Origin: an uncultured Gemmatimonadota bacterium
Lineage (GTDB): Bacteria; JAAXHH01
DNA length: 64,000 nt
Reading direction: 5' to 3'
Assembly (NCBI GenBank): GCA_951812955.1
Contig: OX638340.1
Span: 1,664,001 to 1,728,000 of the forward strand
Within the stretch, counting starts at the first letter, position 1, and every line of letters starts with the position of its first letter. Shown here piece after piece: positions 4,284 to 64,000 of the stretch. A program made the translations under genes and the position numbers. The notes beneath the pieces are model-generated. The model searched no databases. It was given only the letters and a program-made list of their open reading frames with translations, and was not told the origin of the DNA.

Positions 4284-4955
4284 ATGAAGACTGTCTTTTT
4301 CGATCTGTTCGAAACCCTGATTACCGAAAAAACAAGAAGCGCATACCGGACAAGAACCCCGATATACGTGAAACTGCGAACCACGCAGGATCGGCTTTCA
4401 AGGTATTGGGTGGACTTCGGTGATCGCGTTATGACCGGCGGGTTTCCGGATTTCACCGCCATGTTCTCACACATCCGGGAAGAAGTCGGATCACCGGTGA
4501 CTGACCGGGAAATTTCCGAGTTGGCTCAGGATTACGAGCGCAGGAAACAAATCGTATTGTCTACGGTTGATCCCCAGGTCTTCGAGATGTTGAACGAGGT
4601 AAGGACCCTGGGACTAAGCATCGGTGTCATCAGCAACGCCATGCCGGAGGAAGCGCTGGCGTGGAAATCCTGTCCGCTACAGGATCACGTGGACGACGTG
4701 GTATTCTCCTGCAAAGTCGGGTTGATGAAACCGGACAGCAAGATCTATGAGTTCGCCTGTACACGTATGGATATACGGCCGTCCGATGCGTACTTTGTCG
4801 GAGATGGCGGCTTTGACGAACTGCGCGGGGCGGCCTCTGTCGGCATGAAGGCTATACAGGCGGCCTGGTACCTGCAGCAGGAAGTGGCATGGCCCTGGGA
4901 CCATCCCCTGCCCCAGGCGGAATCGATGGAAGACCTGCCGGCCATGTTGAGATAG
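4284..4955 (+). CDS. HAD-superfamily hydrolase
   Basis: Motif I-like FFDLFETL and motif IV VGDGGFDE. ATG is 11 nt after the upstream stop, with a GGGGGGA ribosome-binding site. Confidence 0.65.
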   Translation: MKTVFFDLFETLITEKTRSAYRTRTPIYVKLRTTQDRLSRYWVDFGDRVMTGGFPDFTAMFSHIREEVGSPVTDREISELAQDYERRKQIVLSTVDPQVFEMLNEVRTLGLSIGVISNAMPEEALAWKSCPLQDHVDDVVFSCKVGLMKPDSKIYEFACTRMDIRPSDAYFVGDGGFDELRGAASVGMKAIQAAWYLQQEVAWPWDHPLPQAESMEDLPAMLR

Positions 4956-39152: not shown

Positions 39153-40835
39153 TTAGCTATTGGGCATAGATGTAGGATGTATCTGGTCAAGTGAAGTCTT
39201 AAAGTCCTTTATTTCATAAAGTATAAATCGATCCGCATCATTCAATAAACCACGTAAACGATTCCCATAGTCTATATCGAGATGTTTCTGGCCACCGTGT
39301 ATTATTGAGTGTATTAAAAAACTCCTCATGTATCCTTCATCACCACTTTCATTAAGACGACTGACTTCTCTAAGTACAACTTCGAACATTTCAACAATAA
39401 ACCTATACTCAAATCGCTCAGATTCCAAGATTGTGGCGAGACAAGTCCCAAGTGCAACTGCAGAAGACAAAGGGATGTTATCGTTTGGAAGTGACCAAGT
39501 ATTCCAATCAAGAATTACCCCGTTGTTTTGCTTTGGTAGGTTTCTATGGTGTGAGTCATCTGGTAATTCAGAAACTAGATGAATCCAACTACATAAAGTG
39601 CTTAATACCACATAAACCAATCTAGCCGATCGTGTTGGGAATTCGTCTGTAGTATCCACAGATGGATCAGACGAATCATAGGAACCTTCCAAAGCATCGA
39701 TAACAGACGTCATGTAATAAAGCCACATATGCCATGTAACACCCTGATAGGCTGCGGCTTTAACCATAAGGTCGAAAAACACAACTCCGACAAACACACC
39801 ATTCTCCCAACACTCATAATCGAATTCAACCGCAGTACCCTGTAAGTAATCTACAAAATCAGAAGACTTGTTTGGATTCAGTAACTGTAGGATATGCTTC
39901 CCAACCGGTTGCCATACTTCCAGTTGTAGCGCTATGTTTGCATTCGAAAAGAGAAAATACAAGAGACGATTGCTTACAGGAAACTCATAGCCATGTTGGT
40001 AAGAAATGTTCTGGTTGTATTGGATTTCTTGGTATAGAACGCTTCCTGTGTCAGCGATTAACAGGCTTAAGTATTTTTCAGAAAACTGACGACTACCAAA
40101 TATGTCCTGGTAAATCAGCGGAATCGCAAAGTACGGTCTATTTGTTGCGATATAAACCCGAAGTTCTTCGGACTGAAAAAACACGCGCGCGATGTTTTCC
40201 GCAGAATCTTGAGCACTGTACTGACTAGGTACAATAAACGCTAGTTTACCAAGCCATCGTCGCCCCACTTTAAACAAACCACTTCGATGTGTTGCTGCAG
40301 ATTGTGATTCCTGATCCAAAACCGTGTATCTTAATGCCGCAATATCTCCTTGCATGGCCCCCAAATTGTCATGATGTCGTTGTAAAAACAGCTTTCGATG
40401 TGATGCCTTCCCAATTACTGGTAAATAGGGTTCGATGAATTCAAGCAATTCAGAATACCGCTTTTCAAGCGATAACCGATCTACTATTCGAGCGATTCTT
40501 ACTAGCAAAAAGGACGAGAATAGCCTCGGGATGCTCAAGTGTATTACTATAGCAAAGATGATCCAAAACAAGACTACGAAAAAGGCAACACCGGAGGGAG
40601 AAAGTGGGCTGGATTCTTTGAAAACAATCCACGTGCATAAACTACCTAGAACAGCTGGGCAAGGTTGCCCAAAAACTTCGAAAAACTCAAGATAAACTAC
40701 TATGAAAAGCGAAACTAACGCTAGTGGGATCTGAAGGACAATGACCAGCTTAGCACGTAGTTTATCAACATGCGTGGCAAGTGTATATGCAGCTAGTACT
40801 AGAGTTAAGAATGTTAGAAAACCGTCTAGGGTCAT
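39153..40835 (-). CDS. hypothetical protein: N-terminal multi-TM segment plus a ~400-aa soluble domain, in an AT-rich islet
   Basis: Long ORF whose GC (~40%) is far below the contig's. Four to five N-terminal TM helices. No recognisable motifs. Confidence 0.55.
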   Translation of the reverse strand: MTLDGFLTFLTLVLAAYTLATHVDKLRAKLVIVLQIPLALVSLFIVVYLEFFEVFGQPCPAVLGSLCTWIVFKESSPLSPSGVAFFVVLFWIIFAIVIHLSIPRLFSSFLLVRIARIVDRLSLEKRYSELLEFIEPYLPVIGKASHRKLFLQRHHDNLGAMQGDIAALRYTVLDQESQSAATHRSGLFKVGRRWLGKLAFIVPSQYSAQDSAENIARVFFQSEELRVYIATNRPYFAIPLIYQDIFGSRQFSEKYLSLLIADTGSVLYQEIQYNQNISYQHGYEFPVSNRLLYFLFSNANIALQLEVWQPVGKHILQLLNPNKSSDFVDYLQGTAVEFDYECWENGVFVGVVFFDLMVKAAAYQGVTWHMWLYYMTSVIDALEGSYDSSDPSVDTTDEFPTRSARLVYVVLSTLCSWIHLVSELPDDSHHRNLPKQNNGVILDWNTWSLPNDNIPLSSAVALGTCLATILESERFEYRFIVEMFEVVLREVSRLNESGDEGYMRSFLIHSIIHGGQKHLDIDYGNRLRGLLNDADRFILYEIKDFKTSLDQIHPTSMPNS

Positions 40836-52068: not shown

Positions 52069-53103
52069 CTACCGTGCCTGAACTTCCTGCGCCACGACGA
52101 GAATGTGGCTGCCCTGCCTGACCGGCTGGCGGAAAGACTGCGACAGAACATAGCCGTCCACGCCCGCGCGCACCGGCCAGGGCGGGTCGTCCATGCGATA
52201 GAAATCGTGCAGGTTGCCCACGACCTGTCCCGCTTTCACGAGGTCGCCGCAGGCCATCAGTGGTTCGTAGTGTCCTGGAAAGGGCGCAGGTACGTAACAT
52301 TCCCGGTCGATAATCGCGGTTAGTTTCTGGGTGCCGTCGGCGTGGTGGGCGATGGGCCGGATATCCCCGACAAGCTGGCCGTGATGAATGGCCGCGGCGC
52401 GTATGCCGTGCCGCGCGTACCGCACGCCGTCGGGATTGACCGATTCGCCCCAGCCCAGTTCCGTTCCGATCGTGATCTTTCCCAGCCTTTCCGCCTCGCT
52501 GACCATCAGCCCAGGGGTCTCGTTCTGGTACACCATAATGAAGGGCGTACCGAACCAGCGGGCCGTGTCTTCGATGACGGCCGACTGGTCAGGATCATCC
52601 ACTTCGTGAAAACTCGAGCACTGTGCAAAGTCGAGTTCGGCGCCACCGGAATGGATGTCCGTCACGACGTGCACACGGGGCCATAGATATTCCCGTACGA
52701 AACGGGCGATACGGTGCGTGATGCCCGCGAGGGCCGGCGACGTCCCTGCGCCGTCCACGAAAGCCCGGTTCAGGTTAACCCCGTCATCTGCGTCGCTTGC
52801 CCGCCGGCCCACGTGGAACGCCCCGGGGTTGAGCACGGGGATGAGGATCAGCCGGCCCCTTACCGCCTCCAGCTCGATCTCCTGAAGCAGTCCCTTGATC
52901 GCGACCGGTCCTTCGTATTCGTTACCGTGATTGGACCCGCTGGCCATGAGCCCCTGGCCTTCTCGGGCGTCGGGCCCTACCAGGACCGTTAAGGGGATGA
53001 GATGATCCGCCCAGAGCGAATCGTGTTCCAGGGCGACCCAGTAGTCCCTGCGCCCCGGGGAATCGAGATCGAGCCTGTCGGGTCGTACCACTTCACGGGG
53101 CAT
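52069..53103 (-). CDS. succinylglutamate desuccinylase / aspartoacylase (AstE/AspA) family zinc hydrolase
   Basis: Zn-binding HGNE motif (GSNHGNEYEG) and DIHSGG. First ATG at 53103. Confidence 0.75.
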   Translation of the reverse strand: MPREVVRPDRLDLDSPGRRDYWVALEHDSLWADHLIPLTVLVGPDAREGQGLMASGSNHGNEYEGPVAIKGLLQEIELEAVRGRLILIPVLNPGAFHVGRRASDADDGVNLNRAFVDGAGTSPALAGITHRIARFVREYLWPRVHVVTDIHSGGAELDFAQCSSFHEVDDPDQSAVIEDTARWFGTPFIMVYQNETPGLMVSEAERLGKITIGTELGWGESVNPDGVRYARHGIRAAAIHHGQLVGDIRPIAHHADGTQKLTAIIDRECYVPAPFPGHYEPLMACGDLVKAGQVVGNLHDFYRMDDPPWPVRAGVDGYVLSQSFRQPVRQGSHILVVAQEVQAR

Positions 53104-53184
53104 GCCGGTCTCCAAAATCTACGGGTTTATCGTGCAACAAGAGTCAGAACGAATGGCCAGGCATGGCACAGATTACTCGCGCCC

Positions 53185-53336
53185 CACCGAGACGCCGAGC
53201 AATCCGCGATCATCGCGCCCCACACCGAATTGCCGAGCAGTCCGCGATCATCGCGCGTCACACCGAAACGCCGAGCAGTCCGCGGCCACCGCGCGTCACA
53301 CCGAGACGCCGAGCAGTCCGCGAGTAATTTGGAAAT
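53185..53336. repeat. 38-bp tandem repeat x4. The 3'-most copy on the minus strand encodes the C-terminus of the UxaA-like gene; the other three lie just past its stop.
   Basis: Seen directly: units at 53185-53222, 53223-53260, 53261-53298 and 53299-53336 (CACCGAGACGCCGAGCAGTCCGCG…). The stop of the 53296..56037 gene is the last triplet of copy 3. Confidence 0.8.
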
Positions 53337-56037
53337 CCGTGTTGCCGAGGGCCTCGGCCCGGGGCGTATGAATACTGGCGGCCGTGCGTCGGATCAGGTC
53401 CAGGATGTCTTTCCGCTGTGCCTCCGGTCCACCTTCCAGGATGTGGTCCACGTCTTCGCGGAAAGGTCCGGGCAGGTCCTCCGCACCGACCAGGAGTACT
53501 GGAATCATGGGATGGCCGGGCAGTGGATGGCTGCCGACCCCAGCGACGACCAGCTCCACGCCGGAAGCGCCCAGCCCGGTCATGGTCTCCACCCAGTGCG
53601 TAGTCTGTGACTCCATGACGTGCAGCCCGGGCACGGTAAAAGGTTCGCCATAGGCCAAAGTAGGCTTTGCCGGTCCGTCCGCCAGGTGACGCACGAAGGA
53701 CGGATGACCAAGCAACGCCGAGTTGTCCGGCACGACGACCGTTCCACCCTCGCTTACGACATCGAGGATCAGCCGTGAAAGCGCTTCGGAAAGGTCATCG
53801 GAGAGCGGATCGGCCGCGGACACACCCAGCCTGAGATCGGACAGACCGGTATTGCCCGCGACAGGACCATCGCAATCTTCCAGGGTCTCGGCGAACCAGG
53901 TTTCGATGCGATCGATTGCCTTTTCGATACCGCCATCGAGCTGTACGCTGGCCCAGCCGAATCCCGCTGGATCTATGCCGCGGTCCAGCAACTGCTGCCG
54001 ATAGAAGTCGTTGTGCGTGCGTTCGCAGCCATGCTCCAGAAGCAGGGCGGCCCCCGTCATCGGGTGGGTCAGGTAGCCGGTCATGGTGCGGATGTACATC
54101 TCCTCCGACACGCCGCCCGATACGCCGCACCCCTCGGTGTGTACCAGGGTGACGAATCGGGATATGCCGGCCCCGCACCCAACACCTTTCGCACTCAGCC
54201 GCTCCGCGGCCATCCGGGCGATCTGTCCGGAGCACAGGCTGGTGGGTAGAATCAGGCCGACGCGGTCTGTGGCGAGGTTTCCGTTCACTTCGTACATGGG
54301 CAGTTCGAAAGGCGGTGGAGGCGTCGACGCCTCGTTCGAGCGGACCGCCAGCGGTTCTCCCATCGGCGCTGGCCTGTCGCGGAGGACCTGCAGCCGACTC
54401 CCGTCTGTCTGGCGCCAGTCGCGCCAGATCTGGGTCTGGCTGTGACCCGCCTTTTCGCCGCGGGTCAGTTCGCCCGAGGCCGTTCGCAATGTCAGGTCAA
54501 GAGTCCTTCGTCCCAGTTCGTCCATGGATTCGCCGTCCAGGTAGGCGCCGGCGTTGACGTCCATTTCGCCCGAAAGCATTTCGTACCGTTTCGTAGTCGT
54601 CACGATTTTGATCGTAGGGACAAAAGGAAAGTTGGTGATGGATCCGTTGCCGGTTATGAAGAAGATGACATTGCCGCCGGACGCTACCTGGCCGGCGATA
54701 GCTTCCAGGTCGTTGCCGGGACTGTCCATGAAGTAGTACCCCGGCTCCTTCATCGGTACCGCGTAGTCGATGGCGTAGTCGAGTCGTACGTCGGGGTGGC
54801 GCTTCCGGGCCGCGCCGATGGATTTGAGCACGATGTTGTAAATCCCCCTGAGCTTGTTGCCCCCGGAGGGGTTGGCATCCACCGACTGGCCATGCCACGC
54901 CGTTCGCTCCTGGAAACGCTCGATCATGTGGAGGAACGTGCGGGCCGTCTCGATATCCCGGACATTCTGCAGCACATAGGGTTCGCCGCCGATGAGCTCG
55001 TCAGTTTCGGCAAGACTGGCCTTGCCTCCGAAGCGGATGATCTCCCGTGCGACGAGCGCGGCCAGCGGATTGCCCGATATGCCCGAAAACGAATCCGAAC
55101 CACCGCACTGAAGCACGATGTTGAGATGGGACGCGGAAGCCGGCATCCGTGCGACGCGGTTAACCGTCTCGAACCAGCCGGTGACGAACCTCGCACTACG
55201 CTCAAGTTCCTCGTCAAATCCGCCTTTGAGCGTTTCAAAACGGTGCAGCACCTCGTTCAGCGGATAGCCGTTAAGCCGCATGTAGTTTTCCAGCATCCGG
55301 TCCGTCACGATTTCTGTTCCGCGGTCCACCGCGTAGACCGCACCCACATTGGGATGGACCATGAAGCCCGCCAGCGTCCGCAGCACCAGTTCCCGGTTAT
55401 TGGGGTCCACCCCGGCGCCGCCCTCGGTATGTGCCACGGCCACGACGCCATCTATATTCGGATACCGTTCCACCTTTTCCTTCAGTCTGGATTCCAGCCG
55501 CCGCACGAATCCTGCCGTCTGCGACGTAATGCCCAGGAGGACGATGAAGTTCCGGGTTCCGACGCCCCGCGCCTTCCCTCTGTCATATCCATCGAAGGTC
55601 GGAGGCTTGTCGCTGACAGGAATCTGCTCGCCCGGTGTGAAGGTGGATTCGTCCAGCTCGTAGGGTACCACGCGGTCTTCGAAGTTCGGCTGATCCGGGA
55701 GGGCGAAATCTACCTGCCGTACGCGGAGGGCGTTGAGAATGTCGCCGTTGCAGATGTAATCGCCCGGCGCGATGTCCCGGGTCGCCCGTCCGAAAGGCTG
55801 TCCCCAGGACAGGACGTACTCCCCGGCAGGTATGGCCCGGATGGCGAAACGATGCCCTTCCAGCAGTGAATGGGCGACGGAAAAGGAGTTGCCGGTTTCG
55901 TTGGCAACGCGCGTGCCGGCCTCCAGCCTTCGGGACACGATGGCCACGTTGTCGCCGGGTTCGGCAAGGCGCGCAATGTCTTTCAGGCGGCAGACGGACA
56001 CGATGCCAGGATCCTTGCTGTTAGCATATCTAACCAT
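53296..56037 (-). CDS. UxaA-family (altronate/galactarate dehydratase-like) protein, extended to 913 aa
   Basis: N-terminal SAF domain (VCRLKDIARLAEPGDNVAIV) plus a dehydratase large-domain motif. Roughly twice the usual length; the C-terminal half is Cys-rich. Confidence 0.65.
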   Translation of the reverse strand: MVRYANSKDPGIVSVCRLKDIARLAEPGDNVAIVSRRLEAGTRVANETGNSFSVAHSLLEGHRFAIRAIPAGEYVLSWGQPFGRATRDIAPGDYICNGDILNALRVRQVDFALPDQPNFEDRVVPYELDESTFTPGEQIPVSDKPPTFDGYDRGKARGVGTRNFIVLLGITSQTAGFVRRLESRLKEKVERYPNIDGVVAVAHTEGGAGVDPNNRELVLRTLAGFMVHPNVGAVYAVDRGTEIVTDRMLENYMRLNGYPLNEVLHRFETLKGGFDEELERSARFVTGWFETVNRVARMPASASHLNIVLQCGGSDSFSGISGNPLAALVAREIIRFGGKASLAETDELIGGEPYVLQNVRDIETARTFLHMIERFQERTAWHGQSVDANPSGGNKLRGIYNIVLKSIGAARKRHPDVRLDYAIDYAVPMKEPGYYFMDSPGNDLEAIAGQVASGGNVIFFITGNGSITNFPFVPTIKIVTTTKRYEMLSGEMDVNAGAYLDGESMDELGRRTLDLTLRTASGELTRGEKAGHSQTQIWRDWRQTDGSRLQVLRDRPAPMGEPLAVRSNEASTPPPPFELPMYEVNGNLATDRVGLILPTSLCSGQIARMAAERLSAKGVGCGAGISRFVTLVHTEGCGVSGGVSEEMYIRTMTGYLTHPMTGAALLLEHGCERTHNDFYRQQLLDRGIDPAGFGWASVQLDGGIEKAIDRIETWFAETLEDCDGPVAGNTGLSDLRLGVSAADPLSDDLSEALSRLILDVVSEGGTVVVPDNSALLGHPSFVRHLADGPAKPTLAYGEPFTVPGLHVMESQTTHWVETMTGLGASGVELVVAGVGSHPLPGHPMIPVLLVGAEDLPGPFREDVDHILEGGPEAQRKDILDLIRRTAASIHTPRAEALGNTDFQITRGLLGVSV

Positions 56038-56083
56038 TTCCTACGCAATTAAATCGACGGAAGAATAAACTATAGAAACAAGA

Positions 56084-57334
56084 CTACGTATCTTTGGAGA
56101 GCATCAACTGGATTTTGGGATGGAGATGGCTAACAAGCCTATTCAAGTGATCCCTCATCCAGGAAACAGCGTTCTCGAAATCCGGGGTTTCCCCTTCTTG
56201 TGACAGAAACGACATATCACAGTCCAGATAAAACCCAATTCTTGGTCTATCGGCCGTGTTGTACCACTGGTCGAGGTTATTACCAAGTACTTTTTTAAGA
56301 TCCTCAAACGAGGCATTGATTTCTTCAAAGATCCTGACTTCTCGAGTCTGGTTTTTACGAACTGTAAGATAGCATCCGATTGCCCCGTTTTGTCGGTACA
56401 GATAACCCACAAAACTCAATGCCCAACCGTTGAATGATGAATTCTTTACTGGTAAATATAGAGTTGGATCTTTAGGTGGTTTGGGCCATAACTCAGTCAG
56501 TGAATCTATGGTTGAATCCGAAAACGAGAAATCTTTCAAAACTGCATTCCAAAATCGCAGGTTTTCCTTTTCATATGGTGATTCTTGATAATCATCATCA
56601 CTAGATTCGTCCAGGTCTGCAGGTACGACAGCTCCATTATCACTCTCAATTACGAAACGTCGTACGATTTCAGTACGCGCAAGTACACGAGGATGAACAA
56701 ACAGATTGTGGGCTTTATCGCGGTAAAGGGCCGCTTCCACTAGTGCCAGGTTGAAGTGTAATCCACTGTGGCGCTGTACGAAATCTACTATGTTTTCCAC
56801 ACCTTCCCGAATACCATCGCCAACTATCAATAGTAGGAATTCCCCGCGTTTCAGGTGACGTGAGACATTGTCAACGAATTCAGCTTCATTCAGGTTTGAT
56901 TTTTCTTTACGCACTTTTACGTAGAGAACATTCCCATTCATGCCGGTATTCAGAGATACTTCACGTTGCAAATCTTCGTAATCCCACGAAGCTACTTCCT
57001 TCGTGTAGTCGAGTATTTGGCCAATAACCTCTCGCCGTGCCTGCTGGTTACGCCAGAGTTTGAACTCAACTAGTACAAGTTTTCCTAAGTGGTTTGCGTA
57101 TAACGCGTCTAAGTATCCAGCATTAGTATTCAACTCTCGACAGATTGGAACTAATCCTTCGTATGCAGGATCGATGGCTGTTATTGGTAGAGCTTGTGGA
57201 TGACAAAAAAGAAGCTTTTGTAGCTTTTCTTCGTAAATGCTCCCGTCAGATACTCCAGTATCAAGTGGGACACGAGTTACAACTTCTGGATCTTCGTCTT
57301 CGACATTATTCACAATGATCAGTTTATCTGACAT
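56084..57334 (-). CDS. hypothetical protein with a PD-(D/E)xK-like nuclease motif, in an AT-rich islet
   Basis: ORF GC is ~40%. The block D-x11-LVLVEFK (…YLDALYANHLGKLVLVEFKLW…) resembles restriction-endonuclease-fold motifs II/III. No other domain recognised. Confidence 0.45.
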   Translation of the reverse strand: MSDKLIIVNNVEDEDPEVVTRVPLDTGVSDGSIYEEKLQKLLFCHPQALPITAIDPAYEGLVPICRELNTNAGYLDALYANHLGKLVLVEFKLWRNQQARREVIGQILDYTKEVASWDYEDLQREVSLNTGMNGNVLYVKVRKEKSNLNEAEFVDNVSRHLKRGEFLLLIVGDGIREGVENIVDFVQRHSGLHFNLALVEAALYRDKAHNLFVHPRVLARTEIVRRFVIESDNGAVVPADLDESSDDDYQESPYEKENLRFWNAVLKDFSFSDSTIDSLTELWPKPPKDPTLYLPVKNSSFNGWALSFVGYLYRQNGAIGCYLTVRKNQTREVRIFEEINASFEDLKKVLGNNLDQWYNTADRPRIGFYLDCDMSFLSQEGETPDFENAVSWMRDHLNRLVSHLHPKIQLMLSKDT

Positions 57335-57601
57335 TTACACACTCCAAATTTTGTCACGATTACAGATCCTGATACTTCCTTGCGCCAAAAGTATCTGAAG
57401 TAGATTTCAAATTTCGACACTTTCAGGCCATTCTTGTATTGAGAACGTAATTGATGAAATCCTCGATTCCCGGACTGGCAAGGTACCACTCGCCCCGACT
57501 CCGTGTCAAAGGTAATTCGGCGGCCGCCGATCCGCCCGCCGGATGCCGCGAGCGGCACAGTTGACGCTGCGGCCGAACGGTGTACATTGTCTTCCGGACT
57601 T

Positions 57602-57687
57602 GGTTCGTCTCACGGGCCGGACGCGGTTTCGTCTCACGGACCATTCACGGTTTCATCTCAATCGACGGTCGCGGTTTCATCCAGCGG
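57602..57687 (+). promoter_or_regulatory. four iteron-like direct repeats (GGTTTC[G/A]TCTCA…) with ~23-bp period, upstream of the dimethylformamidase-like gene
   Basis: Seen at 57602, 57625, 57648 and 57673. They lie 55-140 nt upstream of ATG 57741. Confidence 0.45.
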
Positions 57688-57740
57688 AACCCCTCGCTTC
57701 CAGATTCCGATCCAGAACATCCGCCAGCCGGAGGTCCAAA

Positions 57741-59333
57741 ATGCTTGTAGGGTACGTCAGCGACGAACGATATGTTGCCATTCCTGAAGTCCTGCTCGAA
57801 TTCGAAGCCGGCGGGGAATCCATCGAAGCGCGCTCGCGGGCTACGGGGGCGGTCTACGCGGACGTAACGCCCGGACGGGAATACAGGGTCACGCTGGCAT
57901 GCAGGGATTTCGGATTCAAGAGCGTGTACATGACACCGCGCGAAGACCAACCCTACCATTTCCGGCTGTTGCGGGACGACCTGCTGGGCTACATGTGGCC
58001 CAAGTGGGTCCGTACCGGGGAGAAATCGGAATTCCGCGTGCACGCCGTGGAGGCCTACCAGTTGGAACTCTACCGCTACGGATGGAAGAAGGAATACATC
58101 CGGAACATCGGCTGGTACGACGAGCACGGCCCCCGCGCCACGATGCAGATCACGCCCGATGGCGATTACACGCGGTCCGGGGTGAAGTGGAACACCCAGG
58201 GCTATACCAATCCCGCCCACAAACAATACATCGAGGCGCCGGAACGGTCCGGCCTGTACTACCTGCACGCTTCCACTGAGAACGGCGGTTTCTTTTCCTT
58301 CCCCTGGATCGTCGCACCGGCCGCGCCGTCAGCCGACGTCGCCGTACTGGCCGCCAACATCAACTGGAACGCCTACAACAACTTCGGGGGCCGTAGCAAT
58401 TACATCCACGCCGACGAGTTTCCGCCGACCCCCACGGTCAACGCCCGCTACGACCTGAAGCGGTACACCGATCCCTCGCACCGGATGTACAGCGCGGAAG
58501 ACTATGCGCCGCTCTCCTTCGACCGGCCGGAACCGATAAACCACGTTCCCGAGGACGACGAAGCGATGGACATGATCGCGGGTCGCGCGGCGTGCCACGT
58601 CGCGCCCGCGGAGTGGCGTTACCTGGCCTGGATGGAACGGGAGGGATTCGGCTACGACCTATATGCGGAGACGCAGTTCCATGACGGCACGCTGCCCCTT
58701 GACCGGTACCGGGTGCTGATCACCACTACCCACCCGGAATACTGGTCGAAGGACATGTATTTCCGGCTCAAGGCCTGGGTATTCGAATCAGGTGGCAGGC
58801 TCATGTATCTGGGCGGCAATGGCCTGAATTGCGAGGTCGTGTTCGTCGACGAGTACACCATGAAGGTCATGAACGGCAACATCGATTCTCTCGACCGGCC
58901 AGGGGTGGGCATTGAAAGCCGTTTCAACATCTACAACGAATCGGAAGCCAACCTGCTCGGCGTCGCCTTCACGCGGACGGGGATCATGACCAGCGCGCCT
59001 TACCGCGTGATCGACGCAGGCCACTGGGTCTTCGAAGGTACCGGGGTACAGGAAGGAGATATCTTCGGCGAAGCCAGCCTGCACGAACGGGTCCCCGGCG
59101 GCGCGTCGGGACACGAGACCGACAAGATTACCCCGAGTTCACCGCCGAACACCCACCTGATCGCCAAGGGCACCAACGTGGATGATGGCGGCGCCGAGAT
59201 GGTCGTGCATGAGACGGAAAGCGGCGGGATGGTCTTCTCGGCGGGATCGATCACCTATCCGTCGTCGATCCTCGTCGACGACGTGGTGTCGCGGGTCACG
59301 TCCAACGTGCTGAAGCGGTTTCTGGTGGACTGA
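57741..59333 (+). CDS. N,N-dimethylformamidase large-subunit-like (DmfA2-like) protein
   Basis: Long conserved blocks typical of this family (ANINWNAYNNFGGRSNY, LYGNG-like YLGGNGLNCEV). GGAGG ribosome-binding site 9 nt upstream. Confidence 0.7.
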   Translation: MLVGYVSDERYVAIPEVLLEFEAGGESIEARSRATGAVYADVTPGREYRVTLACRDFGFKSVYMTPREDQPYHFRLLRDDLLGYMWPKWVRTGEKSEFRVHAVEAYQLELYRYGWKKEYIRNIGWYDEHGPRATMQITPDGDYTRSGVKWNTQGYTNPAHKQYIEAPERSGLYYLHASTENGGFFSFPWIVAPAAPSADVAVLAANINWNAYNNFGGRSNYIHADEFPPTPTVNARYDLKRYTDPSHRMYSAEDYAPLSFDRPEPINHVPEDDEAMDMIAGRAACHVAPAEWRYLAWMEREGFGYDLYAETQFHDGTLPLDRYRVLITTTHPEYWSKDMYFRLKAWVFESGGRLMYLGGNGLNCEVVFVDEYTMKVMNGNIDSLDRPGVGIESRFNIYNESEANLLGVAFTRTGIMTSAPYRVIDAGHWVFEGTGVQEGDIFGEASLHERVPGGASGHETDKITPSSPPNTHLIAKGTNVDDGGAEMVVHETESGGMVFSAGSITYPSSILVDDVVSRVTSNVLKRFLVD

Positions 59334-59420
59334 TCGGCGAGCGTTGCCCCGGACTTGAGAGCTTGGGAGCGAGGATCGCGCGGTTTTTCGCACCATCGGA
59401 TCAAGACGCGCACCTCAATC

Positions 59421-60371
59421 CTACAACTTCCTCTGGTAGACCCCCGTCACCCGGTGGTTCATTCCCTTCTCGAGGATCAGGTCCGCCCGTTCTCGGGTTG
59501 GAATGATGTTATCGCGCAGGTTCACCAGGTTGATGTCCCGCCAGATTCCCCTGGCCGTTTCCACGGCCTCTTCCGTACTCAGGCCAGCATAGTGATGGAA
59601 GTAGGACTCGGGATTTTGAAAAGCGGTATCCCGTAGCCTCAGGAACCGGTCGACGTACCACTGCGCCAGATCGTGTTCCTCGGCTTCCACGTAAATCGAG
59701 AAATCGATGAAGTCGGATACGAAGACACGAGGCGACGCGTCGCCGGCCAGGTGATGGCCGGTCTGCAGGATGTTCAACCCCTCCAGGATGATGATATCGG
59801 GCTGCGTGATCGTCTTTTCGACGCCGGGCACGATATCGTAGATCAGATGCCTGTACACCGGAACGGTGACCGTCTCACGGCCCGACTTCACGTCCGCCAT
59901 CATCCGCACCAGACGCCGGAGATCGTAGCTCTCCGGAAAGCCCTTCCGCTGCATGAGTCCTCTTTCCTCAAGGACCCGGTTGGAAAACAGGAATCCGTCC
60001 GTGGTGACCAGGTCCACCCGGGGATGGTTCGGCCAGCGGCTCAGCAGGGCCTGCAGGATACGCGCCGTCGTGCTCTTACCCACCGCCACGCTGCCTCCGA
60101 TACCGATTACGTAGGGCACTTTGGCGGCCGGTTTGCCGAGGAAGGTGTCCATTACCCGGTACAGGTGCTGCGCCGCGCCAACATGCAGGTTGAGAAACCG
60201 CGACATGGGCAGGTACACCTCGGCGACCTCGTCGAGGTGTACCATCTCGTTGATGCCGTGCAGTTCCTTCAGGTCTTCTTCCGACAGCGTCAGCGGCGTA
60301 GCGGCGCGCAGTTCCGACCACTCGTCGCGGGACATGTAGTTGAAAGGGGAAAGAGAAGACGATGGGGACAT
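59421..60371 (-). CDS. coaA: type I pantothenate kinase
   Basis: P-loop [12 protein letters not shown] and full-length CoaA similarity (~316 aa). Confidence 0.85.
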
Positions 60372-60441
60372 GGCTTCCTTCCGAATGGTTCCAATGGGAC
60401 CACTGATCTATCGCGGGGATGCCCGCGGACCGGCCGGCCGA

Positions 60442-61551
60442 TCAGTCTATCACGGCCCTTTCGACCATCTGTTGTTCGAGCAGTTCCGGCACGGGTTCCG
60501 CCCCCGCGCCGGGCGTATCAGAAAGGACCATTTGCGATGGGCCCGAAAGTTCCAGTCGCGGCGCGCTCAGGTCCCGCTCGTAGAACCTGGTACTGGGAAA
60601 AACGTCCGATGGGTATTTCATATTGGGCAGCGTCGCCAGCGCCATGCAGAACGAAGCGCCCAGGGCCGATTCGAGCATGCCGCCCGTCCAGCAGGGAACG
60701 CCCTCCTCTTCGCATATCCGGTTCACCTCGAGCGCCTGGGTCACCCCGCCGACCCGGGCGGGCTTGATGTTGATCCACCGGGCCGCGCCTATGCTGATCG
60801 CCTTTCGGGCCCTGTCGGGTGACGTAATGCTCTCGTCCAGGCATATCGGCGTCTCGATCGCGCTTTGCAACTCGGCGTGGTCGACCAGGTCGTCCCGCAT
60901 CAGCGGCTGCTCGATCATGGCCAGGTTGTACCGGTCCAGTTTCCTGAACATGGGCAGGTCGTCCAGCGTGTATCCGCTGTTGCAGTCGATGTGAAAAACG
61001 GAGTCCGGGAAGGCCGATCGGACCGCCGCGATCATGTCCAGATCCCATCCCCGGCTGTACTTCAGCTTGATCCGCTTGAAGCCCGCCTCCACGGCCTGCT
61101 CGATATTGCCCAGCAGCATGTCGATACTGTCCTGCACGCCGAAGTCCGCGCCAACCTCGATGACCGGCCCTTTGCCGCCAATCACCTGCCAGAGCGGCTT
61201 GCCCTCCATCCGGGCGTGCAGGTCCCACCACGCCGCGTCCAGGCCTCCCTTGGCGAAGTAGTTGCCCGCGACCCAGGCGCAGGTCTCGTGCAGATCCCGG
61301 CCGCTGTCGACCCGCCTGCCCACCAGCAGGGGAGCGAGCACGTCACGGGTCACGGCGTATACACCGGCCGTGTATTCCGGGCTGTAGGTTGGCCGGGCGA
61401 GGGGAGTCGTCTCGCCCCAGCCCACGGCATCGCCGGCATGCATCTTCACGATGACGCTCTCGATGACGTCGTCACTGCCGTAGGCCGTGCGCCACGGATA
61501 GATCAGGGGCATGGCGACGTGATATAGCTCGACTGCGTCGATGACGGGCAT
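60442..61551 (-). CDS. enolase-superfamily enzyme (o-succinylbenzoate synthase / N-acylamino-acid racemase subgroup)
   Basis: KLK, DCN and D-E-S barrel ligands (RIKLKYS, HIDCNSGY, CLDESI). Confidence 0.75.
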   Translation of the reverse strand: MPVIDAVELYHVAMPLIYPWRTAYGSDDVIESVIVKMHAGDAVGWGETTPLARPTYSPEYTAGVYAVTRDVLAPLLVGRRVDSGRDLHETCAWVAGNYFAKGGLDAAWWDLHARMEGKPLWQVIGGKGPVIEVGADFGVQDSIDMLLGNIEQAVEAGFKRIKLKYSRGWDLDMIAAVRSAFPDSVFHIDCNSGYTLDDLPMFRKLDRYNLAMIEQPLMRDDLVDHAELQSAIETPICLDESITSPDRARKAISIGAARWINIKPARVGGVTQALEVNRICEEEGVPCWTGGMLESALGASFCMALATLPNMKYPSDVFPSTRFYERDLSAPRLELSGPSQMVLSDTPGAGAEPVPELLEQQMVERAVID

Positions 61552-63123: not shown

Positions 63124-63471
63124 ATGGTTCAACTCTTGGATATCGTCTTCAAATCACAAAAGCTTGCTCAGATATTCAATTCAGAGAACAACCTCAAGAA
63201 GAAGTACGGGACAAAGTGTTCGCGTACCATAATGATAAGAATGTCCGTTTTGAGAAACGCCAGTACTTTGGAAATTGTACCGAAAACCCCGCCTGACCGG
63301 TGCCACCAGTTAAAAGGGCGTCGTAAGGGGCAATTCGCGGTGGAACTGGATGCAACGCGAAGGCTCGTCTTCAAACCGAACCATGAACAGACTCCACTTT
63401 CAAACGATGGCGGTATAGACTTGAATGGCGTGACAGCAATAATGATCCTCGATGTAACGGAATATCATTGA
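63124..63471 (+). CDS. higB: HigB-family toxin (RelE/ParE superfamily, COG3549-type)
   Basis: Conserved block HQLKGRRKGQFAVELDATRRLVFKP…DVTEYH. AT-rich local context. Confidence 0.75.
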   Translation: MVQLLDIVFKSQKLAQIFNSENNLKKKYGTKCSRTIMIRMSVLRNASTLEIVPKTPPDRCHQLKGRRKGQFAVELDATRRLVFKPNHEQTPLSNDGGIDLNGVTAIMILDVTEYH

Positions 63472-63510: not shown

Positions 63511-64000
63511 GTGGAGTCGCAGAAATATCAGTACCGGCCGGACTACGCAGTGCAGCCAGGATGGGTCTTGGAAGAGAGATTGGACGCGCATGGCATGACG
63601 CACGCTGAATTCGCACGCAGGTGTGATCGTTCACCGAAGCTCATCAGCGAAATCATCGCTGGGAAGGCTCCGATCGTACCAGAGACTGCTTTTCAATTTG
63701 AATTGGTGTTAGGCGTTGATGCCAGTATCTGGTTAGGTATAGAGGCTGACTATCGTCTATACTTGATCCGTGCTATTGCCGAAAAAAGAGCAGAAGCCGC
63801 TGGCACGTGGTCCAGATCATTTCCAGTTAGAGACCTAGCCAAACGAGGGGTAATCCGCAAATCGGCATCTACGGGTAAGGCGGCATCTGAGCTACTGGCT
63901 TTCTTCGGTGTAGCATCAGTAAATGCATGGAAGATGAAGTACGAAAACGTAAATGCCGCCTTTCGTCAATCACCGTCATTCGAAAGCGACAGAGCTGCAT
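63511..64000 (+). CDS. higA: HigA-family XRE-HTH antitoxin (long form), 3' end outside the window
   Basis: My own translation from GTG 63511 (GGAGGA ribosome-binding site at 63501-63506) gives …QPGWVLEERLDAHGMTHAEFARRCDRSPKLISEIIAGKAPIVPETAFQFELVLGVDASIWLGIEADYRLY…, the COG3093 HTH. The frame is still open at 64000. Confidence 0.7.
   Translation, partial: MESQKYQYRPDYAVQPGWVLEERLDAHGMTHAEFARRCDRSPKLISEIIAGKAPIVPETAFQFELVLGVDASIWLGIEADYRLYLIRAIAEKRAEAAGTWSRSFPVRDLAKRGVIRKSASTGKAASELLAFFGVASVNAWKMKYENVNAAFRQSPSFESDRAA

Follow-up and report, generated by a model that had tools for sequence, protein, structure and literature searches.

Among the systems described so far, the closest to the gene analysed here is PDC-S11 of the PADLOC database, renamed "Madara" (Escherichia coli ECOR34) in a September 2026 preprint (bioRxiv 10.64898/2026.09.05.749240). 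Madara consists of an N-terminal NucS-like nuclease, a linker, and a C-terminal sensor; it restricts T4 with glucosylated hydroxymethylcytosine and related phages, not unmodified T4(C), is inactivated by the D63A substitution, and is encoded at an AT-rich locus silenced by H-NS (10.64898/2026.09.05.749240). MdgA and MdgB, two nucleases that carry the DUF4268 domain, were found by functional metagenomics in 2025 (Cell Host Microbe, PMC12366544). They protect against T4 but give no defence against T4-GT7; modified T4 DNA is broken down by purified MdgA, and the E77A substitution inactivates MdgA. DUF4268 also occurs fused to GmrSD Type IV enzymes (PMC4619093). The gene in question lies in a 64,000-nucleotide stretch (here called the window) from an uncultured Gemmatimonadota bacterium (assembly GCA_951812955.1, contig OX638340.1, positions 1,664,001 to 1,728,000), on an AT-rich islet between a UxaA-like gene and a dimethylformamidase-like (DMFA-like) gene. 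We consider it rather likely that the product of the islet is a restriction nuclease that works on its own and depends on DNA modification (Type IV-like), of the same kind as the NucS-like/DUF4268 proteins PDC-S11/Madara and MdgA, and we infer its anti-phage function and modification dependence from homologues studied by others. It is a divergent further member of a kind known since 2025-26 and does not represent a new one.

The gene on the islet has a GC content (guanine plus cytosine) of 43%, as compared to about 62% in the flanks, and its neighbours are those named in an earlier note on this DNA. The span of 56040-57560 given there is close to that of the insertion, and the 416-residue protein it listed is encoded by an open reading frame that has an ATG start and a ribosome-binding site, a GGAG Shine-Dalgarno sequence at 57342-57345 on the minus strand, 7 nucleotides upstream of the ATG. 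Residue conservation was assessed in two alignments, one of 41 close homologues with 56-88% identity (A1) and the other of 106 distant homologues with 27-52% identity (A2). The main features are as follows.

56018..57470, no strand: AT-rich inserted block (the islet), bounded by the empty site of a related genome (L085) and by the GC profile
56084..57334, minus strand: nuclease coding sequence, 416 residues, ATG start, uninterrupted, stop codon at 56084-56086
56669..57247, minus strand: NucS-like PD-(D/E)xK nuclease domain, residues ~30-222
57059..57109, minus strand: catalytic motif D76-x13-E90-x-K92, invariant in A1 and A2
57005..57019, minus strand: Q106-x3-Y110 (NucS-type motif), on the helix that follows the ExK strand, conserved in both alignments
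56585..56668, minus strand: acidic, variable, disordered linker, residues 223-250, with a predicted local distance difference test score (pLDDT) below 50 and gap-rich A1 columns
56087..56584, minus strand: C-terminal DUF4268-like domain, residues 251-416, the proposed sensor of DNA or of its modification

The putative catalytic motif, DALYANHLGKLVLVEFK, occupies residues 76-92. It had been read correctly in the earlier note apart from its spacing, which was miscounted as x11; the true spacing is D-x13-E-x-K, that is D-x9-LVLV-EFK. D76, E90, and K92 are invariant in the 41 close and the 106 distant homologues, and the motif is thus no chance match. E35, Q106, Y110, and the G172-D173-G174 triplet are also invariant in A1. 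E35 and Q106 remain invariant in A2, where Y110 is present in at least 90% of the sequences and the triplet is invariant down to 27% identity. The AlphaFold model of the full protein has a mean pLDDT of 80, with most of the nuclease core at 78-93. In the model, a helix (residues 35-44) and a strand (62-70) precede the catalytic strands, D76 is located on the strand 73-80, E90 on the strand 86-91 with K92 directly after it, and a helix (98-116) follows. The alpha-beta-beta-beta-alpha-beta core of a PD-(D/E)xK nuclease is thereby present, with the aspartic acid on strand 2 and the ExK on strand 3, and both the conservation of the triad and the predicted fold bear out the nuclease assignment that had been made from the motif. 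The domain reaches to about residue 222, and not to 100-160 as had been supposed, and it is followed by the linker at residues 223-250.

The predicted fold is closest to NucS, FokI, Shedu, HamA, and Can2. A profile of the A2 family aligns E35/D76/E90/K92 exactly onto E127/D160/E174/K176 of NucS in the PDB, a match that is informative although non-significant (E 0.43), while PDB sequence searches that started from the window protein alone or from the A1 profile gave nothing useful. In NucS, D160, E174, and K176 are catalytic. The Pfam model NucS_C (PF01939) scores 16.8 bits (E 0.007) on the window protein, under the gathering threshold of 24 bits, which is reached by the distant homologue P0201 (24.3 bits). 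The NCBIfam model for NucS (NF003270) reaches 16.9 bits, short of its cutoff of 216, and covers residues 59-114 only, and a PHROGs search of the window protein returned nothing meaningful. Judging from the model and the alignments, the N-terminal domain is a predicted PD-(D/E)xK nuclease of a NucS_C-like branch.

The likeness to NucS also brings up a role in DNA repair, in which the protein would be a housekeeping nuclease, a rearranged NucS/EndoMS analogue that cuts mismatches or branched DNA. NucS is both the closest solved structure and the subject of the only Pfam and NCBIfam hints, the N-terminal domain is very strongly conserved (a mean of 74% identity across phyla), many genomes have the gene in a housekeeping neighbourhood, and the C-terminal tail P-[RK]-[LI]-Q-x-M-L is, speculatively, somewhat like a clamp-binding peptide. 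However, NucS/EndoMS (Pyrococcus abyssi, 2vld) is a core mismatch-repair enzyme with the DNA-binding domain at the N-terminal and the nuclease at the C-terminal end, whereas the window protein has this order reversed, lacks the N-terminal DNA-binding domain of NucS, carries a DUF4268-like partner domain instead, and is encoded by an accessory and horizontally mobile gene. The gene is dispensable, since it is deleted in the sister genome L085 and was never at this site in the outgroup L086. It is patchily distributed, moves between phyla, has a foreign base composition, and is present in two copies in some genomes, and some copies are flanked by insertion sequences (IS) or located in islands with integrase or prophage genes. 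In these respects it is atypical of core repair genes, and we regard a repair function as improbable.

The C-terminal part had been described as a region of about 250 residues with no recognisable match. It is indeed not recognised by direct matching, but the domain itself is 165 residues long. When residues 251-416 were modelled alone, the pLDDT was 94.5 and the predicted template modelling score 0.90, with the elements in the order alpha-beta3-alpha-beta2-alpha. The nearest solved structures are distant, and none of the top 60 structural matches has an EVE, PUA, or SRA fold; the EVE-like C-terminal sensor that the Madara authors describe is not a feature of the window protein. DUF4268 matches were obtained for 27 of the 106 distant members (best E 7.6e-13) and, weakly, for 11 of the 41 close relatives. 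Four proteins pass the gathering score of 27 bits (P0136, 35.4; P0151, 36.6; P0154, 32.7; P0186, 28.1 bits), all with the domain at residues ~260-398, and these align with the window protein nearly from end to end. The conserved residues of the C-terminal domain are mostly aromatic (F261, W262, W304, W357, and W392), in addition to D273 and G320. At the extreme C-terminus (residues 406-416, 56087-56116) is the above-mentioned P-[RK]-[LI]-Q-x-M-L, with Q409 and L412 present in at least 90% of the close homologues; it loosely recalls a sliding-clamp-binding peptide, and in the model it forms the end of a long helix and may be purely structural.

Both domains can be connected to known defence proteins. 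The window protein matches the PDC-S11 model PDLC04916 (E 5.8e-8), and 105 of the 106 family members match PDC-S11 models, for which PADLOC has no curated cutoff for these matches. The family members match models 04911-04916 with both domains, with E values down to 1e-15 or 1e-16, and their C-terminal domains match the C-terminal half of models 04911-04914, for example with residues 248-400 of P0136 and 230-399 of the Bosea homologue. Both domains are therefore related to PDC-S11. The suggestion of a single-gene defence or Type IV-like element, made earlier from the motif, gains support from this, as the family matches PDC-S11, which has since been shown to be modification-dependent (10.64898/2026.09.05.749240).

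Similar to the window protein, Madara works without a partner gene and combines, in one chain, a NucS-like PD-(D/E)xK nuclease at the N-terminal end, a linker, and a C-terminal domain of ~150 residues; its locus is likewise AT-rich, and its catalytic aspartic acid is essential (D63A). MdgA and MdgB are single genes that combine a nuclease domain with DUF4268, MdgA being widespread across phyla, and the catalytic glutamic acid E77, essential in MdgA, is compared here to E90. In the GmrSD-family Type IV enzymes, too, DUF4268 accompanies a modification-dependent restriction enzyme as an accessory domain (PMC4619093), but their catalytic modules are DUF262 (nucleoside triphosphatase/ParB-like) and DUF1524 (HNH-type) rather than PD-(D/E)xK. 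McrBC differs in being a two-protein machine that depends on guanosine triphosphate, in which the N-terminal domain of McrB reads 5-methylcytosine (3ssc); the likeness of this domain to the window protein is weak and common to many unrelated alpha/beta domains.

If the assignment is correct, the C-terminal DUF4268-type domain would bind DNA and recognise a base modification that is absent from the host and present in the DNA of some phages. This recognition would license the N-terminal PD-(D/E)xK domain, with E35, D76, E90, K92, and Q106 as the predicted catalytic residues, to cut the foreign DNA. The nuclease would probably be active in dimeric form, like NucS and FokI. No methyltransferase would be required, since self DNA would be spared by being unmodified, and methyltransferases account for 2 of the 148 immediate neighbours in 74 loci and for none in the locus of the window itself. 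A different mechanism would be that of a defence or toxin nuclease with a C-terminal domain that senses another sign of infection (a phage protein, for example, or the ends of DNA or damage to it) and then sets off non-specific DNA degradation in abortive infection, like Shedu, Hachiman HamA, or Can2/Card1. We think that this is unlikely.

A modification-dependent nuclease with a separate reader is also consistent with how the two domains have diverged. The mean pairwise identity of the N-terminal domain is 74% among close and 47% among distant relatives, as compared to 54% and 17% for the C-terminal domain, and a single Spirochaetia genome has two copies with 81% identity in the former and 53% in the latter. 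Such a difference would be expected if a constant cutter were combined with a diversifying specificity module. Purifying selection is strong on both domains.

Homologues number more than 3,482 among clusters at 90% identity, and at 50% clustering there are 2,956 representatives, 548 of them with E <= 1e-30. A scan of species-representative genomes, which was pattern-based and favours close relatives, confirmed 326 loci, of which the best 80 were kept. All of these 80 are from metagenome-assembled genomes and encode proteins with 49-63% identity to the window protein, in Chloroflexota (Dehalococcoidia, SAR202), Latescibacterota, Acidobacteriota, Binatia, Spirochaetia, and Gamma- and Alphaproteobacteria. 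Relatives with 50-73% identity are present in at least five phyla. The identity across phyla is up to 73%, as between Bryobacterales and Rariloculaceae and between Dehalococcoidia and Binatia, and the gene has therefore spread horizontally. Full-length homologues with 33-37% identity are encoded by megaplasmids of cultured Rhizobium, Bosea, Burkholderia, Paraburkholderia, and Sphingobium, which makes them accessible to experiments. The names of the organisms (Candidatus Poriferihabitaceae, the isolate codes IRC/COS/RHO, and a Bosea isolated from the sponge Callyspongia) suggest that the pool is largely associated with sponges; Poriferihabitaceae metagenome-assembled genomes are reported in a sponge genome note (PMC12859430).

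No conserved partner gene (methylase, antitoxin, or ATPase) was identified, as no neighbour cluster is present in more than 10 of 83 loci, and neighbour families that are common to several of these loci reflect synteny among related hosts. The earlier expectation that homologues might lie in defence islands is weakly borne out. Some homologues in cultured organisms and metagenomes adjoin restriction-modification, CRISPR (clustered regularly interspaced short palindromic repeats), IS, integrase, or prophage genes, but restriction and methylase genes make up only about 5 of the 148 immediate neighbours in the 74 loci (three REase-ARP and two MTase_II), the others being metabolic or housekeeping genes. 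The matches to SspA and DndA among the neighbours are class-V aminotransferases. The homologue on the plasmid of Bosea sp. ANAM02 has CRISPR-associated genes within ~3-5 kb and an endonuclease gene less than 1 kb downstream. In L097 and L098, IS240 transposase genes adjoin the nuclease gene, together with an integrase and a PIN toxin in L097, and with prophage genes and an integrase in L098. These two loci (L097, 6865-11882; L098, 1290-5667) contain an identical family member, P0066, with the same 679-residue protein and an IS240-type transposase in different contexts, one a chromosomal island (integrase, PIN toxin, DUF932, PDDEXK_4) and the other next to prophage structural genes, which suggests that P0066 is part of an IS-borne module.

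To follow the history of the locus, the window was compared with related metagenome-assembled genomes. Orthologues of the nuclease are located at the same site in two of them, with protein identities of 88% (L001/L002) and 81% (L003). The window and L001 align continuously over 9.7 kb, straight through the islet, with 86.7% identity, and the number of synonymous substitutions per synonymous site (dS) between them is 0.335 for the nuclease gene and 0.35-0.45 for four flanking genes. The ratio of nonsynonymous to synonymous substitutions (dN/dS) versus the orthologues in L001 and L003 is 0.09-0.18, and the gene is therefore under purifying selection. In L085, the DMFA-like protein of which is 93% identical to that of the window, the UxaA-like and DMFA-like genes are directly adjacent, and a more distant genome (L086, L087) has the empty arrangement too. 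Homology of the window to L085 in blastn stops at 56017 and restarts at 57471, so that the inserted block comprises 1,453 bp in the window and 37 bp at the same place in L085. A tree of five concatenated flanking proteins groups ((window, L001), (L003, L085)), with L086 outside. Because of this grouping and the empty sites in L085 and L086, the simplest history is a single gain in the ancestor of the clade and a later deletion in L085. The junction in L085 looks like the left flank of L003 joined to its right flank across a TCG(A) microhomology. The junction microhomologies are only 3-5 bp long (CTTG, TCG(A)); we read them as left by the deletion in L085 rather than as target-site duplications. 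The islet is thus an inserted block with an empty site, as its description as acquired had implied, but recent acquisition was rejected, given the continuous alignment with L001, the flank-like dS, and the sharing of the islet by descent in three related genomes.

The clean boundaries of a single-gene insertion that lacks integrase, tRNA, and terminal repeats, the many different genomic sites across phyla, and the persistently foreign composition would also be seen if the nuclease gene were selfish and propagated itself, like a free-standing homing endonuclease, without benefit to its host. However, the insertion sites have no recognisable target in common, and in the clade of the window the gene has stayed at one site by descent, with a dS of 0.335 against 0.35-0.45 in the flanks (L001). 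Both domains are under strong purifying selection, the homologues of proven function are host-protective, and elsewhere the gene rides on ordinary mobile elements (IS240, an integrase island). A selfish element is, in our estimate, very improbable.

Several observations weigh against a modification-dependent restriction nuclease, the reading we favour. The window protein has no match to Pfam DUF4268 (PF14088) at E <= 1, and because of this the homology of its C-terminal domain to DUF4268 is indirect, through full-length intermediate relatives. Its match to PDLC04916 pairs residues 61-201 with profile positions 43-169 of 358 and thus covers the nuclease half only. The comparison with Madara was made through its description and the PDC-S11 profiles, and that with MdgA and MdgB through their description. 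Most homologues are located among metabolic and housekeeping genes and not in recognisable defence islands, and a search of 50,697 phage records gave no homologue. Finally, the long vertical inheritance at one site in the clade of the window is less typical of defence genes with a fast turnover.

The low GC content of the islet gene has persisted for a long time. The GC content of its 416 codons is 43.1%, and that at third codon positions (GC3) is 39.3% (0.393), as compared to 62.3% and 74.6% for the UxaA-like gene and 61.4% and 78.4% for the DMFA-like gene. In about half of the loci, gene and host have similar GC contents. An AT-rich lineage, consisting of the window, L001, L003, L004, L005, L007, L009, L011, and L017, which are mutual nearest relatives with 61-89% identity, has gene GC contents of 42-47% inside genomes of 58-63% GC, and GC3 values of 0.36-0.49 across 35-40% protein divergence. 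In the clade of the window, dS is 0.34-1.27, yet GC3 stays at 0.36-0.39. Polarised synonymous changes in the nuclease gene are balanced (18 AT-to-GC versus 21 GC-to-AT), whereas in four flanking genes (52069-61551; compared with L001 and L003) there are 33 AT-to-GC versus 201 GC-to-AT changes, a count possibly inflated by parsimony bias in GC-rich genes. Because of the synonymous turnover with steady GC3 and the balanced changes, the nuclease gene is not drifting towards the composition of its host. Selection may favour that a nuclease which could harm its own cell is silenced or only weakly expressed, or the gene may be exempt from the force that keeps host genes GC-rich. As for the flanks, the skew towards GC-to-AT changes reflects either host lineages that are losing GC or a parsimony artefact.

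A more far-reaching version of our reading, tentative and on the whole doubtful, takes the subfamily of ~410 residues as a distinct and hitherto unmodelled NucS-like/DUF4268 branch that is shared as a defence gene across many phyla of one host-associated, apparently sponge, microbiome, with DUF4268 as a new reader of modified bases and with a low GC content that is actively maintained rather than a fading sign of the transfer. The reader would then be built on a secretion-chaperone/YktB-like fold rather than on EVE, SRA, or YTH, with the aromatic residues F261, W262, W304, W357, and W392, and it could be that, in GC-rich hosts, the maintained low GC content holds down or silences the expression of a nuclease that is toxic to the cell itself.

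If the assignment as a modification-dependent nuclease is right, an unannotated family of more than 3,400 proteins at 90% clustering gains a function, single-protein modification-dependent restriction; no Pfam or NCBIfam model reaches its threshold on the window protein. The natural variants pair a near-fixed cutter with a reader that diverges fast, and could be a source of enzymes for different DNA modifications, as tools for epigenetics and phage DNA. The distribution points to a putative defence gene that is shared between phyla within one type of microbiome. Because of the long absence of drift in base composition, the islet is also a small but clean case in which to test how GC-rich bacteria restrain foreign genes that are potentially toxic.

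The following features surround the nuclease gene.

57335..57470, minus strand: AT-rich 5' leader of the nuclease gene, read from the sequence, kept between the window and L001
56018..56083, minus strand: spacer from the nuclease stop codon to the UxaA-like gene, without a terminator-like site
57480..57509, minus strand: promoter-like TTGACA-N18-TACCTT just outside the islet, read from the sequence

The TTGACA-N18-TACCTT block is kept in the window, in L001 and L003, and in L085 with its empty site. Its original role was probably to drive the UxaA-like operon, whereas it is now the nuclease gene that it faces. Because this element is kept in all four genomes and no terminator-like site is present between the genes, we infer that the islet occupies the former 5' leader of the UxaA-like operon and that the nuclease gene may be read from a host promoter. 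A scan for consensus promoters and terminators found nothing exceeding the shuffled expectation, and the TTGACA-N18-TACCTT element falls below its threshold. No tRNA, terminal inverted repeat, or convincing direct repeat is present at the ends of the islet, and no RNA family was found in an Rfam scan of 55800-57900.

The flanking genes at the syntenic loci carry the Pfam domains GD_AH (UxaA/altronate-dehydratase family) and DMFA2_C. The ATG at 56037, which opens the longest UxaA-like reading frame, falls inside the islet (region 55999-56037), and the UxaA-like gene of L085 begins at a GTG equivalent to about 56001 in the window. Because of this start, the first ~12 codons of the UxaA-like gene in the window may be islet-derived or not translated. 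On the other side, the leader of the DMFA-like gene (57604-57688) contains three tandem copies of a 24-nucleotide unit (TTCGTCTCACGG...), in a region that varies in length among the window, L001, L003, and L085, and a promoter-like TTGACG-16-TACATT is located upstream of these repeats, at 57561-57588.

The loci L001 and L002 represent the same 21-kb region, present twice in one 3.9-Mb contig (ENA ERZ25070917, ctg125736_636x_l), at 222667-243911 (L001) and 3798387-3819631 (L002). The DMFA-like gene is split into 176 and 361 residues in one copy and intact (530 residues) in the other, and the repetition reflects a large duplication or else an artefact of the assembly.

Elsewhere in the window, an open reading frame of 560 residues with a hydrophobic N-terminus is located at 39153-40835 on the minus strand, in what is presumably the "first" AT-rich islet (GC 40-42%, 39-41 kb), and the GC content dips again to 48% at 42-43 kb. 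In the AT-rich end of the window (GC ~48%), a reading frame of 115 residues at 63124-63471 on the plus strand has a C-terminal half that, by eye, resembles a "killer" toxin of the HigB/RelE type. The stretch that follows it (~63523-63757) matches an 83-residue HTH_3 (antitoxin-like) gene in L003, and the two probably form a toxin-antitoxin pair.

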